A stretch of 64,000 bases of DNA from an uncultured Verrucomicrobiae bacterium (lineage in GTDB: Bacteria > Verrucomicrobiota > Verrucomicrobiia > Limisphaerales > UBA11358): contig CAVXLF010000023.1 of assembly GCA_963762585.1 (NCBI GenBank), positions 85,035-149,034 of the forward strand. The letters are read 5' to 3'. The position numbers and the translations under genes are program-made. The notes under the pieces are model-generated. The model saw nothing but the letters and a program-made list of their open reading frames with translations, ran no database searches and was not told the origin of the DNA. Shown here in pieces: positions 789 to 59,930 of the stretch (positions within the stretch are counted from its first letter, which is position 1; every line of letters starts with the position of its first letter).

Positions 789-870
789 TTTAATTCACGT
801 TTTACGTTTCACGCTTCGCCCGCACGCCAGCCTTGGCTGAAACGTAAAGCGCGAAACGTGAATCCATCCT

Positions 871-28980: not shown

Positions 28981-30003
28981 ATGATTGCTGTTGCTGACCA
29001 TTCCGCACCGGTCGTGGACGACCTGCAAGTCCGCCCGGCCATGGCCCCTTCGCGGTTCGAGCCGCTGGCCCGGGAGATTTTCGCGCTCAAAAAGCAGCTC
29101 AACGCCGTCATTCTCGCCCACAATTATCAGGTGCCGGAAATCCAGGACGTGGCGGATTACGTCGGCGACTCGCTCGGCCTGTCGCAACAGGCGGCCAAAA
29201 CGAGCGCGGATGTGATTGTGTTCTGCGGCGTGCATTTCATGGCTGAGACGGCGAAGATTTTGAACCCGAACAAGATTGTCGTGCTACCGGACAAGAACGC
29301 GGGCTGTTCGCTCGAGGAAAGTTGTCCCGCGGACAAACTGGCCGCGCTCCAGGCGACGAATCCCAATTTCTGGACCATCGCCTACATCAATTGCAGCGCG
29401 GCGGTAAAGGCCCTGACCGACGTGATCTGCACCAGCGGCAACGCGGTGAAAATCGTTCAGGCCGCGCCCAGGGACAAGGACATCCTGTTTGTGCCGGACG
29501 AAAACCTGGGTGCGTGGGTGATGGAACAGACCGGCCGCCCGATGACGTTGTGGCAGGGCAATTGTTACGCGCACGTCGAGTTCCGGCGCGAACAGGTGCT
29601 GAAATTGCGCGCGAAATATCCCGACGCCAAGGTTGTGGTGCATCCGGAAAGTTTGCGCGAAGTGCGTGATCTGGCCGACGCGGTTTGCTCGACGGAGCGA
29701 ATGATTTCCTACTGCAAATCGGACCCGGCCAAACGATTCGTCGTGGTGACGGAATCGGGCATAATCCACCGGATGCAGAAGGAATGTCCGGGCAAGGAAT
29801 TTCTATGCGCGCCGGTGTTCGACGTGATGCGGCTGCCGTCGGATCATTGCCGTTGCAGTGAGTGCAAGTACATGAAGCTGAACACGCTGGAAAAGGTGCG
29901 CGACTGCATGAAACAGCTCGCGCCGCGCGTTGAATTACCGGCGGAAATCTTGAAGCGCGCCCGGTTGCCCATTGAGCGGATGCTGGAAATTTCAGCGCGG
30001 TAG
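28981..30003 (+). CDS. nadA: Quinolinate synthase
   Basis: 340 aa; ILAHNYQVPEIQDVAD.VGDS, FCGVHFMAETAKIL, AYINCSA, VVHPES, TESGI; start could be the later Met at 29041. Confidence 0.93.
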   Translation: MIAVADHSAPVVDDLQVRPAMAPSRFEPLAREIFALKKQLNAVILAHNYQVPEIQDVADYVGDSLGLSQQAAKTSADVIVFCGVHFMAETAKILNPNKIVVLPDKNAGCSLEESCPADKLAALQATNPNFWTIAYINCSAAVKALTDVICTSGNAVKIVQAAPRDKDILFVPDENLGAWVMEQTGRPMTLWQGNCYAHVEFRREQVLKLRAKYPDAKVVVHPESLREVRDLADAVCSTERMISYCKSDPAKRFVVVTESGIIHRMQKECPGKEFLCAPVFDVMRLPSDHCRCSECKYMKLNTLEKVRDCMKQLAPRVELPAEILKRARLPIERMLEISAR

Positions 30004-30023
30004 GGCGGCGCTGCCGCGCCGCC
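30000..30023. repeat. GTAGGG-headed hairpin supplying the nadA stop codon
   Basis: GTAGGGCGGCGCTGCCGCGCCGCC: GGCGGCGC-TGCC-GCGCCGCC stem; TAG at 30001-30003 is the nadA stop. Confidence 0.7.
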
Positions 30024-30105
30024 GAGGCCGGGCAGCAGCCTGGCCCTGCCAAAAGTTGGAGACAGGCGCGACGCCGGTTCTACAGCGTAGGTTTGGCCCG
30101 CTGAC

Positions 30106-39947: not shown

Positions 39948-42224
39948 GTGAGTCTTCACCGCGACCAACTTTTCGCGCCACTGAAACAATTCTTCGGCTT
40001 CAGTTCCTTCCGTCCGTTGCAGGAGGAAATCATTCGCGACGCGCTCGCGGGCAAGGACGTTTTCGCCGTGCTGCCCACCGGCGGCGGCAAATCGCTCTGC
40101 TTCCAGCTTCCCGCGCTCGTGCAACCCGGACTCACCGTTGTCGTCTCGCCGCTCATCGCGCTGATGAAGGACCAGGTGGACGCGCTACAGGCGGCGGGCG
40201 TGGCGGCGACATTTTTGAATTCATCGCTCGCCGCCGGCGAATCGCGTCCGCGCCTGCGCGGCTTGCACCAGGGCGAGTTCCGGTTGCTCTACGTCGCGCC
40301 GGAGCGGTTAATGTTGTCCGGTTTTCTTGACGACCTGAAGAAATGGAACGTGAACCTGTTCGCGATTGACGAGGCGCATTGCATCAGCGAGTGGGGACAC
40401 GATTTCCGCCCGGAATACCGGCAATTGCAGACGATGCGCGGAATTTTTCCAACCGTGCCGATGATGGCGCTCACGGCCACGGCCACCGAACGCGTGCGCG
40501 GCGACATTGTCCGGCAGCTGCATCTGAAGGATCCCGCGTGCTACGTCGCCAGTTTCAACCGCCCGAACCTGACTTACCGCGTCGCGGCGAAGTCAGGCGC
40601 TTATGACCAGATTCTTTCGTACGTGCAGGCGCGGCCGAACGAAAGCGGCATCATTTACGTGCAGGCGCGCAAAACGGCGGACAGCCTGGCGGCCAAACTT
40701 TCCGCCGACGGCGTGAAGGCGCTGCCGTATCACGCGGGCATGACCCCCGGTGACCGGACGAAAAGCCAGGAGGCATTTCTTCGCGACGAGGCGCGCGTGA
40801 TTTGCGCGACCATCGCCTTTGGCATGGGCATCAACAAGCCGAACGTGCGTTTCGTGATTCACTACGACCTGCCGAAGAACATCGAAGGCTATTATCAGGA
40901 AACGGGCCGCGCCGGCCGTGACGGTCTGCCCGGCGAATGTCTGCTGTTGTTCAGCCCCGGCGACCGGGTCAAGCAGATGCGGTTCATTGACGAAAAACCA
41001 AGTCCGCAGGAGCGCGAAATCGCCCGCGCCCAACTGGAACAGATGATTCACTACGCCGAGATCGCCACCTGCCGCCGTGAATTTCTGCTGGGATATTTCG
41101 GGGAGAAATTTAATCCAAATGAGGTTGTCGGACAAGGTGGGGCGCGTCACTCCGTGCGCGCCGACTTTGCAACATTGGACAACGGCGCGCACGGAGTGAC
41201 GCGCCCGACCGAACCCGTGAATTGTGCCGGCTGCGACAACTGCCTCTCGCCGCGCGCGACCTGGGACGGCACGCTGGCGGCGCAAAAATTTCTTTCGTGT
41301 GTCTATCGCATCCGTGAGAAAAGCGGTTTCGGCGTCGGCATTCAGCACGTGGTCGAGGTGCTCTGCGGTGCGGAAACGGAAAAAGTCCGCAAGTTCGGCC
41401 ACCACACACTTTCGACCTACAACATTGGCGACGGACATGCGCGCGCCGAGTGGAGCGCGATTGGACGTGAACTGGTGCGGCTCGGTTTGCTGTTTCAAAA
41501 CGCGGAGAAGTTCAACATCGTCGAGCTGACCGACGCCGGTCACACGGCGCTGAAATCGCGGCAGAAAATCACGTTGACCAAACCGGTCGCTCCGACCGAA
41601 CCGGCGAAGCATCGCGCCGGCGAAATTGCCTGTGACGAGGCGTTGTTCGAGAAATTGCGCGCGCTGCGGAAACAGCTTGCCGACGCGCGCGCCGTGCCGC
41701 CTTACATTATTTTCTCCGACGTGTCGCTGCGGCAGATGGCGCGGTTTTATCCCGCGAACGAAAAGGATTTTTCGCGCATCAGCGGCGTGGGTGAAAGGAA
41801 GCTGCGCGAATTCGGCGAAGCTTTCCTGGGTGAAATTGCGGCGCATGTGCAGACGAACCCGCGCCAGGTTTTTGCGGATGATTTCCCGGCGGATGGAATG
41901 CCGTCCGCGCCGGTGCCGCGCCGGTCACGGCTGACCGACAGCGTGCGCGAGACGCTGCATTTTTTCCAGCAAGGCCGGGCGGTTTCCGAAATTGCAAAAA
42001 TTCGCGGCTTCAAAGACAGCACGATTTACAGTCATCTTGAAGAAGCCATGCTCGCGGGCGAATCGGTTGATGTGCATTCATTGGTTTCAGCCGAAGCCAG
42101 GCGCGACATCGCCGCAGCCTTCGTCCGGCACGGTTTCGGCAACCTCACCGGCGTGGTCGAATCGCTCGGCGGGAAATACGGTTACGGCGAATGCCGCGTC
42201 GTCCGCGCCGCGTTGCAAAGGTAG
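39948..42224 (+). CDS. recQ: ATP-dependent DNA helicase RecQ (helicase-RQC-HRDC plus C-terminal HTH-like tail)
   Basis: [91 protein letters not shown], CxxCDNC, HRDC ([15 protein letters not shown]). No in-frame ATG; GTG 39948 proposed. The track ORF start 39540 overlaps gyrB. Confidence 0.92.
41136..41210. mobile_element. REPIN (inverted REP doublet, 28+19+28 nt) inserted in frame in recQ
   Basis: GGTGGGGCGCGTCACTCCGTGCGCGCCG (41136-41163) and CGGCGCGCACGGAGTGACGCGCCCGACC (41183-41210); each is 27/28 identical to the arms flanking the RAYT gene at 59.3-59.9 kb. Confidence 0.85.
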
Positions 42225-42378: not shown

Positions 42379-45234
<2,856 letters not shown>

Positions 45235-48841: not shown

Positions 48842-48935
48842 AACATCCAACATCCAACATCCAACATCCAATTCCCAATGCCGGCGGTGCAGGCATCATT
48901 GGATGTTCGGCGTTCGATGTTGGATGTTGGATGTT
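48842..48935. repeat. Inverted pair of heptamer arrays (AACATCC xN ... GGATGTT xN)
   Basis: AACATCC x4 perfect plus 2 degenerate (48842-48883); GGATGTT-type x5, 3 perfect (48901-48935); the arms are reverse complements. Confidence 0.85.
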
Positions 48936-59293: not shown

Positions 59294-59930
59294 GGTAGGG
59301 CGCGTCACTCCGTGCGCGCCGTCGTTGTTCGTGCGGCGGGCAGGGGACTGCCCGCCCTACCCAAACGTGGGTGACGGTCGGTTATTCGGGCGATAGACCC
59401 ATGCCCAGTCTTCCGCGCGCTCGCACAATCCTTTACGGACAGGATTCATCAGAATGTAGCTGGTCTTCTCCGCCAATTCATTATGATCGCGCAGACGGTG
59501 ATCGAAGAAATCGCGTTGCCAATGCACATCGTGTTTTAAAGCCACATATTTCTTCCAATTTTTCATCACCGTTTCAATTCCTGGTTCGCGCGGGAACGCG
59601 AGGAGGGCATGCAAATGATCCGGCATGAGCAGGCACAGCCGACAATGCCAGATAAGTTTCTCATGGTTGTATTTCATCGCCGCCAACACAGCATCGCCGG
59701 TTCCGGCCTGGCATAAGTGATTTCTTCCCGGCGGCATGCATTTGATCGTGATGAAGAACCAACTTCCCTCAGCCACCCACTGCGGAATTGTGTGCGGCAG
59801 CTTTTTGCGGACAGGCAAGTCCATTAAGTGAAACGCAACCGAGGCCAACCGTGAAAGTTGGGCTCCGTAAGTCGTCTATGCGCCTTTAGTATTTTCGAAC
59901 AACGGCGCGCACGGAGTGACGCGCCCTACC
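59294..59930 (-). mobile_element. RAYT unit: tyrosine transposase gene bracketed by perfect 28-bp inverted REPs
   Basis: GGTAGGGCGCGTCACTCCGTGCGCGCCG at 59294-59321 and its exact reverse complement at 59903-59930. An additional GTAGGG-headed hairpin (59335-59362, minus orientation) supplies the RAYT stop. Confidence 0.85.
59357..59824 (-). CDS. REP-associated tyrosine transposase (IS200/IS605 Y1 superfamily)
   Basis: GSWFFITIKC, LLMPDHLHALL (HUH), WQRDFFDHRLRD, YILMNPVRKGL (catalytic Tyr), collinear with E. coli-type RAYT. ATG 59824 preferred over TTG 59848. Confidence 0.85.
   Translation of the reverse strand: MDLPVRKKLPHTIPQWVAEGSWFFITIKCMPPGRNHLCQAGTGDAVLAAMKYNHEKLIWHCRLCLLMPDHLHALLAFPREPGIETVMKNWKKYVALKHDVHWQRDFFDHRLRDHNELAEKTSYILMNPVRKGLCERAEDWAWVYRPNNRPSPTFG

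Follow-up and report, generated by a model that had tools for sequence, protein, structure and literature searches.

A recQ gene with a REPIN (two inverted REPs and a spacer) inside its coding sequence was located in the window, the whole 64-kb stretch of DNA that was analyzed, together with a gene for a REP-associated tyrosine transposase (RAYT) that lies ~18 kb from the REPIN and is flanked by REPs of the same family (Table 1). The host is a soil/peat verrucomicrobium. The start of recQ was placed from the gene call of a 99%-identical protein (P0001) and the GTG codon at 39948. The open reading frame (ORF) was assigned to RecQ by a profile score above the cutoff (TIGR01389, 719 bits; cutoff, 640), by the full set of Pfam domains (DEAD, Helicase_C, RecQ_Zn_bind, RQC, HRDC, and HTH_40), and by the four zinc-ligand cysteines (C365, C416, C419, and C422, numbered as in the 748-aa query), which were invariant in 42 orthologs. 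The reading frame stays open across the insert and all helicase motifs are kept, in agreement with the original prediction of an open and conserved gene; the insert breaks the TIGR01389 alignment to the window RecQ into two pieces.

Table 1. Positions of the recQ gene, its inserted REPIN, and the RAYT gene with its flanking REPs in the window
Feature	Coordinates	Strand	Remarks
recQ coding sequence	39948..42224	+	758 aa; GTG start at 39948 probable
Enlarged Zn-subdomain loop	41106..41222	+	39 codons, YFGE to CAGCDNC; canonical 5-6
REPIN, 75 nt: two inverted REPs and spacer	41136..41210	+	In-frame, 25 codons
Left REP arm GGTGGGGCGCGTCACTCCGTGCGCGCCG, head GTGG	41136..41163	+	27/28 identical to RAYT-flanking REP
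Spacer ACTTTGCAACATTGGACAA, 19 nt	41164..41182	+	Between REP arms
Right REP arm, reverse complement GGTCGGGCGCGTCACTCCGTGCGCGCCG, head GTCG	41183..41210	-	27/28 identical to RAYT-flanking REP
REP, GTAG head	59294..59321	+	3' side of RAYT gene
RAYT gene	59357..59848	-	163 aa from TTG or 155 aa from ATG 59824
REP, GTAG head	59903..59930	-	5' side of RAYT gene; inverted relative to 59294..59321

The insert had been placed inside the zinc-binding subdomain, between YFGE and the CxxCDNC cysteines, and alignment to Escherichia coli RecQ (1OYW) bore this out, with YFGE at residue 391 and the following Cys at C397, the second zinc cysteine. The E. coli subdomain (PDB 1OYW/1OYY) shares the domain order and the four Cys ligands and differs in its connection, which has 5 residues (392 to 396), in keeping with the short loop of the original prediction, versus 39 in the window RecQ. 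The REPIN accounts for 25 of the ~33 surplus loop residues. The remaining 8 (NPNEVVGQ.. and ..EPV) are non-REP and are partly common to orthologs with a different element. An AlphaFold2 prediction of RecQ with 42 close orthologs was too poor for placement of the loop (mean pLDDT, 58; pTM, 0.31).

The element begins at codon phase 0, and its coordinates and phase agree with the earlier description of two inverted 28-nt arms around a 19-nt spacer read as 25 codons. The arms are 96% complementary, and four of the six frames of the element are free of stop codons. Minimum free energies (MFE) were -44.4 kcal/mol when folded as DNA (z = -9.6) and -69.3 kcal/mol when folded as RNA (z = -9.9), a stability matched by none of 200 shuffles. 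Four exact copies of a 23-nt core, GGGCGCGTCACTCCGTGCGCGCC, were found in the window at 41140(+), 41184(-), 59298(+), and 59904(-), with 0.00 expected (100 shuffles). The RAYT-flanking copies read GGTAGGGCGCG(TCACTCCGTG)CGCGCC, and the sole mismatch between each recQ arm and the RAYT-flanking 28-mer, GGTAGGGCGCGTCACTCCGTGCGCGCCG, lies at position 3 of the GTAG head, which upholds the predicted identity of 27/28. Copies of this family, type A, were also found elsewhere than in recQ (L087:50-79, L108:157-184, and L163:8816-8846, as well as contigs L169 and L170). These features of GTAG REPs and REPINs are present: a short headed palindrome, an inverted pair with a spacer, dispersed copies, and a RAYT flanked by the same REP. 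The original REP criterion was an extragenic location, whereas this element lies within the recQ ORF; intragenic members and degenerate heads (GTRG/GTMG) have since been accepted as REPs (Di Nocera, De Gregorio & Rocco 2013, BMC Genomics 14:522; PMC3733652). A single match, P0121, was obtained in a protein search with the 39-aa loop, and it was rejected as a spurious second host, being a 2017-aa repetitive protein that does not contain the peptide.

A probable cognate transposase had been proposed in the window, and the ORF in question matched NCBIfam NF047646 (REP-associated tyrosine transposase) with 86.2 bits (cutoff, 80) over profile positions 5 to 145 of 146. Its translation contains the HLH (HUH-type) and YILMNP motifs that, with the profile match, place it among the RAYTs. 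Pfam gave no match to this ORF at an E value of ≤0.001. Homologs numbered 2197, many of them with the JGI name RayT, and the protein from either possible start had no exact database record. The pairing of a RAYT with type-A REPs was seen again in two other genomes (L169 and L170), with RAYTs 79% and 75% identical to that of the window. A search of the clade recQ loci (1.03 Mb) yielded no RAYT homolog, and among the palindrome families a RAYT was seen alongside A only.

The zinc-subdomain loop in RecQ orthologs

The insert was compared with the corresponding loop of distant and close RecQ orthologs. Approximately 70 distant RecQs had a loop of about 6 aa (5 to 6 aa) and no segment homologous to the 25 residues, the presence of which would have argued against a mobile origin. 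Close orthologs either had no 25-aa segment or carried other palindromes. A scan of genome contigs with full-length RecQ returned at least two clade members among the matches listed, and the other 78 loci were outgroup. A long loop insert (19 to 71 aa) was present at 79 of 91 orthologous loci (87%), and the loop exceeded 10 aa at 84 of them (92%). Empty sites with 6-aa loops were also found inside the clade (L084, L154, L161, L162, and L168). The reading frame through the loop was intact at all 91 loci.

The long loops contained palindromes that fell into 10 multi-member DNA families, unrelated to each other, and singletons. Hairpin potential was strong (z ≤ -3) in 53 of the 79 long loops (median z, -5.6) and gone (z > -2) in 19, about a quarter; many of the hairpins were near-perfect (-40 to -58 kcal/mol). 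Copies elsewhere in the loci were found for families A, C, D, E, G, I, and N, and possibly for D2 (one borderline match). The heads of families D, D2, and H are GGAG-type, not GTAG. Within recQ, hairpin inserts were limited to the zinc-subdomain loop and one linker. Among 29 gyrB orthologs no hairpin insert was found, and gcvP had three sporadic hairpin sites. The RecQ loop is therefore a clade-wide palindrome hotspot, occupied by at least 10 unrelated families in a Limisphaerales-like clade; the original prediction, made from the window sequence, could not have included this.

Type-A REPINs occurred at one codon position, give or take a single codon, in orthologs 83 to 100% identical to the window RecQ in the core. 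An ortholog comparison had been proposed to tell whether the 25 aa are lineage- or strain-specific; they are not strain-specific, and the element reaches orthologs at ~83% core identity. In these orthologs the spacer length was constant (19 nt), and the spacer sequence was largely unrelated. The arms were much more conserved than the spacers, and the flanks diverged too.

Different families occupied the loop in genomes only 2 to 6% diverged in the recQ flanks, and family switches were also seen at 95 to 96% core protein identity. Nested elements were found, with N within D or D2 and H within D2. No convincing common target motif or target-site duplication was found at the junctions. Families D, D2, and H all begin after AAGTTYGG. 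[quoted passage not shown]

Origin and persistence of the insert

It is likely that the recQ element is a head-out dimer of GTAG-type REPs of the RAYT-flanking family, fixed in-frame in recQ. The IS200/IS605 family is the basis for inferring RAYT-driven transposition of REPINs; by analogy with its substrates, the RAYT would presumably cut and rejoin REP hairpins as single-stranded DNA. The orthologous sites, some filled, some empty, and some with a different element, are indirect evidence for such mobility. One copy would have landed in the codons of a short surface loop ahead of the second zinc cysteine. RecQ would stay functional because the copy is 75 nt long and stop-free and leaves the loop anchors (YFGE and CxxCDNC) and the four Cys intact, and the 25 residues may be carried as an extra, probably disordered, loop. 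Because both of its GTAG heads are mutated, the recQ copy is probably immobile. Palindromes of many families would have been inserted, nested, replaced, or lost at the same codon position, probably because the loop is unusually permissive and because resident hairpins attract or seed further insertion or exchange of palindromes. More tentatively, and with less than even probability, the codon position before the second zinc cysteine may be a recurrent REP/REPIN landing pad, at which at least 10 families would be inserted, nested, replaced, and excised within a few percent nucleotide divergence.

A possible alternative, toward which we do not lean, is that there were few ancient insertions and that the families are old loop alleles, maintained in the population and shuffled between close lineages by homologous recombination through the highly conserved recQ flanks. 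Element type was scattered over the core tree, with ~72 changes among 120 taxa, a count that is indicative only, the tree being a crude one (UPGMA on p-distances). The 240-bp near flanks were more diverged than the far flanks in several pairs of very close loci (0.092 versus 0.021 for L133/L141 and 0.081 versus 0.039 for L128/L148), a pattern that imported segments would give. The nearly fixed position and constant spacer length of type A in orthologs 83 to 100% identical also fit shuffling. However, with far-flank distance controlled, a shared element type added almost nothing to near-flank similarity (coefficient, -0.006). Nested and composite elements show new insertion at the loop, and the near-perfect hairpins suggest recent origin or homogenization. 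Shuffling would cover the distribution of the elements but not their origin, and it is partly compatible with the preferred reading of REPIN insertion in a permissive loop.

The hairpin or the peptide could instead be functional and selected, whether through an mRNA or DNA structure that regulates expression of recQ or through a loop that alters the activity of RecQ, which we consider improbable. Retention of a long insert in 79 of 91 clade orthologs (>10 aa in 84), even though its sequence is replaceable, is consistent with selection, as are the conserved arms between diverging spacers and flanks, the very stable RNA hairpin (-69 kcal/mol), and the published finding that intragenic REPs are overrepresented among replication and repair genes (PMC3733652). 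Yet neither sequence nor length is conserved between families (6 to 81 aa), hairpin potential is lost in 19 of the 79 long loops, and empty sites exist within the clade. Gene conversion by copies elsewhere in the genome can also keep arms conserved, and a search of the entire window against Rfam matched no family. The loop peptide is most probably a neutral passenger. That arms are far better conserved than spacers in type-A orthologs is not expected under pure neutrality, and the hairpin or the extra loop might be kept for modulating RecQ or its expression.

REPs often break or confuse assemblies, and in one 99%-identical ortholog (L085) the left arm is unusual, being rich in G and shorter by 3 nt; an assembly artifact, or an inactivated recQ pseudogene, is nevertheless highly improbable. 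An artifact was rejected because at least five independent assemblies from different samples share the insert (L089, L085, L081, L090, and L091), one of them (L089) with 100% identity to the window RecQ over a 136-aa query fragment. A pseudogene is at odds with the intact ORF, the invariant helicase motifs and zinc cysteines, and the frame preserved through the loop at every one of the 91 loci. A local origin of the palindrome, by slippage or duplication-inversion in the loop, to which a quasi-repeat in the L154 empty site (TTCGGTGAA AAG TTCGGTGAA) might point, is even harder to credit and was rejected because the recQ arms match distant REPs, with 27/28 identity to those beside the RAYT 18 kb away and matches on other contigs and at other RAYT loci.

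The recQ insert is best read as a REPIN that is tolerated and probably neutral, lying in a permissive surface loop where palindromes are gained, nested, or swapped again and again. In-frame REPs are selfish palindromes that lengthen proteins without destroying them, as is already established, and here they occupy a well-defined permissive site adjoining a zinc ligand in a structurally characterized enzyme. The loops, empty or variously filled, constitute a natural experiment that could expose REPIN target choice, nesting, replacement, and excision, and we know of no direct observation of any of these so far. Should the landing-pad reading be true, the filled, empty, and replaced loops would form the first natural series that could be read for REPIN mobility and target choice. 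In addition, recQ becomes another repair gene in the unexplained link of intragenic REPs with genome-maintenance proteins. Inserts of this kind split profile alignments, as TIGR01389 is split here, and annotation pipelines should anticipate such cases.

Comparison with known palindromic repeats

REPIN/RAYT systems of Pseudomonas and E. coli have reportedly been described by Bertels & Rainey, by Nunvar et al., and by Ton-Hoang/Messing et al. The recQ element shares with them an inverted REP pair with a short spacer, a conserved GTAG head, and a RAYT gene of the IS200/IS605 HUH-Y1 family between the same REPs (a REPtron). It differs in lying within a coding frame, classical REPINs being extragenic, in its degenerate heads (GTGG and GTCG), and in its host, a Verrucomicrobiota MAG lineage. 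Rickettsia palindromic elements (RPEs), said to have been reported by Ogata et al. in 2000, are likewise palindromic repeats that conserved proteins carry in-frame and tolerate as peptides on their surface. REPIN/RAYT systems are also treated in PMC8049555.

The resemblance to RPEs that had been suggested at the outset holds for the in-frame, tolerated palindrome, but the nearest precedent is the intragenic GTAG REPs and REP dimers (PMC3733652). RPEs are CGTC-tagged, have no dedicated transposase, and are confined to Rickettsia (PMC3733652). The recQ REPIN, with its GTAG-type head, Verrucomicrobiota host, and RAYT, is not a member of that group and works in an RPE-like manner.

Insertion elements such as IS1397 and ISKpn1 target REP hairpins. 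So does ISPpu9 of Pseudomonas putida (PMC8450116). These elements set a precedent for palindromes as landing sites of mobile DNA, which would account for nesting and replacement in the RecQ loop. They are, however, complete insertion sequences that encode transposases and enter extragenic REPs, whereas the palindromes of the RecQ loop are small, lie within a gene, and nest in or take the place of each other.

The closest system is that of Di Nocera et al., who described RAYT-associated, GTAG-headed REPs in-frame in known proteins as singles and as dimers, the latter encoding 20 to 30 aa (PMC3733652). Because such intragenic REPs and dimers had been published, the phenomenon is less novel than the original prediction implied. 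Their greatest number was found in the verrucomicrobium Opitutus terrae, they were overrepresented in genes for replication, repair, and helicases, different REPs occupied about one site in Xanthomonas recB, and a mutator or regulatory role was raised for REP-tagged repair genes (PMC3733652). The O. terrae GTAG-19 peptides VARASRP, TGGTPVP, and GTGVPPV (PMC3733652) correspond to type E and to the recQ linker insert found here. RecQ is not mentioned as a target in the text or the text-format supplements of that study (PMC3733652). An in-frame palindrome in a gene is thus of a kind already published, and what is new is the multifamily hotspot in the RecQ loop: one codon position with at least 10 families, filled in 87% of clade orthologs and turning over within a few percent divergence, was not among the cases of Di Nocera et al. 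and is present here.

Palindrome, host gene, and transposase

The ORF holding the palindrome is, from its sequence matches, a bona fide recQ; it scored 719 bits against TIGR01389, matched the Pfam families DEAD, Helicase_C, RecQ_Zn_bind, RQC, HRDC, and HTH_40, and probably starts with the GTG at 39948. The original prediction of two inverted 28-nt arms around a 19-nt spacer, read through as 25 recQ codons, was confirmed in its coordinates and lengths. The element, a REPIN (two inverted REPs and a spacer; type A), spans 75 nt, begins at codon phase 0, and reads without a stop as 25 residues (4 of 6 frames are open). Its arms are 96% complementary and folding is very strong, with minimum free energies of -44.4 kcal/mol as DNA (z = -9.6) and -69.3 kcal/mol as RNA (z = -9.9). 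A 23-nt core, GGGCGCGTCACTCCGTGCGCGCC, occurred exactly 4 times in the 64-kb window (0.00 expected), with two copies making up the REPIN and two lying inverted around a REP-associated tyrosine transposase (RAYT) ORF. Each recQ arm matched the RAYT-flanking 28-mer at 27 of 28 positions, as had been claimed, and in each arm the sole mismatch was at position 3 of the GTAG head (GTGG and GTCG).

Coordinates of features in the window and in related loci (L numbers)
Feature	Position	Strand or length	Remarks
REPIN left arm	41136-41163	28 nt	inverted-repeat search
REPIN right arm	41183-41210	28 nt	inverted-repeat search
Inverted core copies	59294-59321, 59903-59930
RAYT ORF	59357-59848	minus; 163 aa	between the inverted REP copies
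Second REP-like hairpin, GGCGGGCAGGGGACTGCCCGCCCTACC	59336-59362		GTAG head on minus strand
REP of another family, GGTAGGGCGGCGCTGCCGCGCCGCC	30000-30026		GTAG head
Linker insert site	~41870-41900		empty in window
Heptanucleotide repeat in gcvP	43741-43775		perfect (GGCAATC)x5, in frame, 12 residues
Inverted heptamer arrays	48842-48935, 793-863		AACATCC units; TTTCACG-like units
gcvP REP/REPIN inserts	L090:12562-12585, L101:3601-3621, L144:12569-12596, L138:12878-12925; also L128, L133	up to 55 aa	in frame
Type-I REPIN	L102:3360-3470, L119:4062-4172, L131:11230-11343, L144:11322-11370		at or just past recQ stop, recQ-gcvP spacer
Type-N palindrome	L169:6550-6605		in called poly(A) polymerase/CCA-adding enzyme gene (466 aa)
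Altered left arm, GGGGCGGGGGGGGTGCGCGCCG	L085:1328-1350	3 nt shorter	frame kept
PIN/PhdYeFM pair	L081:6406-7187, L084:6314-7093		between gyrA and gyrB

Alignment to Escherichia coli RecQ (1OYW) broke at YFGE (residue 391) and restarted at C397, so that the zinc loop, between YFGE and the second zinc cysteine (CAGCDNC), has 5 residues in E. coli and 39 in the window RecQ, bearing out the predicted placement in a loop that is short in E. coli. Approximately 70 distant RecQs from many phyla, including other Verrucomicrobiota, have 5 to 6 residues there and no homologous 25-residue segment. Of the ~33 extra residues, 25 come from the REPIN; the others are non-REP (including ..EPVN) and are partly common to orthologs with a different element. 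All helicase motifs and the four zinc cysteines were invariant in 42 close orthologs, in agreement with the claim that recQ stays open and conserved around the insert. An AF2 model of RecQ was poor and did not confirm loop exposure.

The RAYT ORF exceeded the cutoff of the NCBIfam REP-associated tyrosine transposase equivalog (86.2 bits; cutoff, 80) and is flanked by the same REPs, which upholds its designation as the probable cognate transposase. The best 120 of its 2197 homologs were mostly 72 to 87% identical, and many of these carry the JGI label "REP element-mobilizing transposase RayT." Because type-A REPs also flank the homologs in two other genomes (L169 and L170; 79% and 75% identical), the RAYT-REP-A association holds in three genomes; a sister REP, GGTAGGGCGCGCAGTCCTCTGCGCGCCG, flanks the same two homologs. 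No RAYT was found for families other than A in 1.03 Mb of clade recQ loci. At the RAYT 3' end, the second REP-like hairpin directly adjoins REP-A, the pair forming a heterodimer. ORF 28981-30003 takes its stop codon from the TAG in the head of the REP at 30000, a use of GTAG REPs described previously (PMC3733652).

Occupancy and turnover of the zinc loop

Conserved gene order (gyrA-gyrB/recQ-gcvP) identified the related recQ loci as orthologs. The same insert was found in L089 (Ga0182016_10000085; 100% identical over a 136-aa query fragment) and in L085, L081, L090, and L091; these independent assemblies rule out an assembly artefact. More diverged type-A versions occurred in L086 and L092, and the insert is not strain-specific. 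Type-A orthologs had nearly invariant 24-nt arm cores and heads that varied (GTAG, GTGG, and GTCG), and their spacer kept its 19-nt length with largely unrelated sequences in the window, L086, and L092. For conservation to be so much greater in arms than in spacers, either the hairpin would have to be under selection or gene conversion by other copies would have to act. In L085, a 99%-identical strain, the hairpin was weakened to -27.9 kcal/mol, and its odd left arm is either true REPIN decay or a consensus error.

In the 120 closest RecQ proteins (77 to 99% identical, from Verrucomicrobiota MAGs; nearest named, Limisphaerales bacterium), the loop spanned 6 to 81 residues of unrelated peptide classes. 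Among 91 loci of the clade (1.03 Mb of DNA), loops of 19 to 71 aa were found in 79, loops of 11 to 18 aa in 5, and loops of ≤10 aa in 7, including 5 with the canonical 6 aa (e.g., KFGEEN). Values of z were ≤-3 in 53 of the 79 long loops (median, -5.6), and energies reached -58 kcal/mol. By DNA similarity, the long loops formed 10 multimember families and 15 singletons, many visibly decayed. Most families start with a GTAG-type head (A, GGTAGGGCGCG; B, GGTAGGGACGCG; C, GTAGCAGCCG; E, GTAGTGGCAC; G, GTAGGGCAGGCTTTC; I, GTAGGGCAGGCGTC), and D, D2, and H start with GGAG. Composites included N within D and D2, H within D2, and an extra unit within B. Arms of A, C, D, E, G, I, and N recurred elsewhere in the loci, identifying these families as dispersed repeats, as possibly is D2 (one borderline 22-nt match). 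Type-I REPINs also occurred at or just past the recQ stop codon, and type N, the family nested in recQ loops of other loci, lay within another gene in L169.

When a tree was built from the RecQ core (loop omitted; 120 taxa), element types were scattered over it, with ~72 parsimony changes. The nearest relatives of the window RecQ with other families were P0004 (95.7% core identity; E), P0005 (95.3%; B), and P0011 (92.9%; C). Loop content differed between loci with far-flank divergence of 2.1% (L133, D; L141, D2+N), 2.9% (L095, B; L131, I), 5.9% (L093, B; window, A), and 6.8% (L137, C; L165, near-empty). Family turnover, as read from these sequences, is rapid, a pattern that recurrent insertion and replacement would produce. 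A reshuffling of old alleles by recombination in place of repeated insertion is consistent with it too; the greater divergence of near than far flanks in some close pairs hints at recombination, although sharing a type added almost no near-flank similarity (coefficient, -0.006).

Palindromes in other genes

Hairpin inserts were absent from gyrB in 29 orthologs from the same loci, and gcvP (glycine dehydrogenase) had three sporadic insert sites, each filled in 2 to 5 of 28 orthologs (e.g., L144, 55 aa, -52 kcal/mol; L128, 37 aa, -46 kcal/mol). In-frame palindromes are thus general in these genomes, but a single loop filled in 87% of the loci stands out as exceptional. Within recQ, the one other site was a short HRDC-HTH_40 linker insert, GTGVPPVRTGK (carried by 17 of 120 orthologs; +9 aa), a single in-frame type-E/GTAG-19-like REP, AGTGGCACAGGCGTCCCGCCTGTTCGA, in L088, L102, L123, L124, L143, L144, and L147.

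Gain or loss of one unit of the gcvP heptanucleotide repeat would shift the frame; orthologs encode other peptides at this site (PKSSNFELRTSNF and DHASRITHHASRTT), whose make-up suggests a 7-nt periodicity. The heptamer arrays appear to be a repeat class separate from REPs. The toxin-antitoxin pair was absent in, e.g., L082 and L083.

Proposed mechanism and precedents

The identity of the element with the RAYT-flanking REPs, its in-frame stop-free reading, the intact RecQ motifs, and orthologous sites that are filled, empty, or replaced were observed directly, and the original interpretation is supported. RAYT may move the REPIN as a single strand into loop codons, where the insert would be tolerated because the loop is exposed; the head mutations (GTGG and GTCG) may have cost mobility. 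The hotspot could reflect a permissive loop together with hairpin-seeded nesting or exchange.

This kind of phenomenon is already published. The GTAG REP superfamily was defined by Di Nocera et al. (2013; PMC3733652), who described intragenic REPs and dimers encoding 20 to 30 aa, commonest in Opitutus terrae, a verrucomicrobium, and overrepresented among replication/repair genes and helicases, with different REPs at about one site in Xanthomonas recB. The O. terrae GTAG-19 peptides (VARASRP, TGGTPVP, and GTGVPPV; PMC3733652) are those of type E and the recQ linker insert. RecQ is absent from the text and text-format supplementary files of PMC3733652, and a literature search returned nothing on palindromes in the RecQ zinc loop; what is new and useful is the detail that a zinc-finger loop is a hotspot across the clade. 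The suggested resemblance to Rickettsia palindromic elements holds for the way of working, but the recQ REPIN is not one of them, since those elements are CGTC-tagged and without a transposase (PMC3733652).
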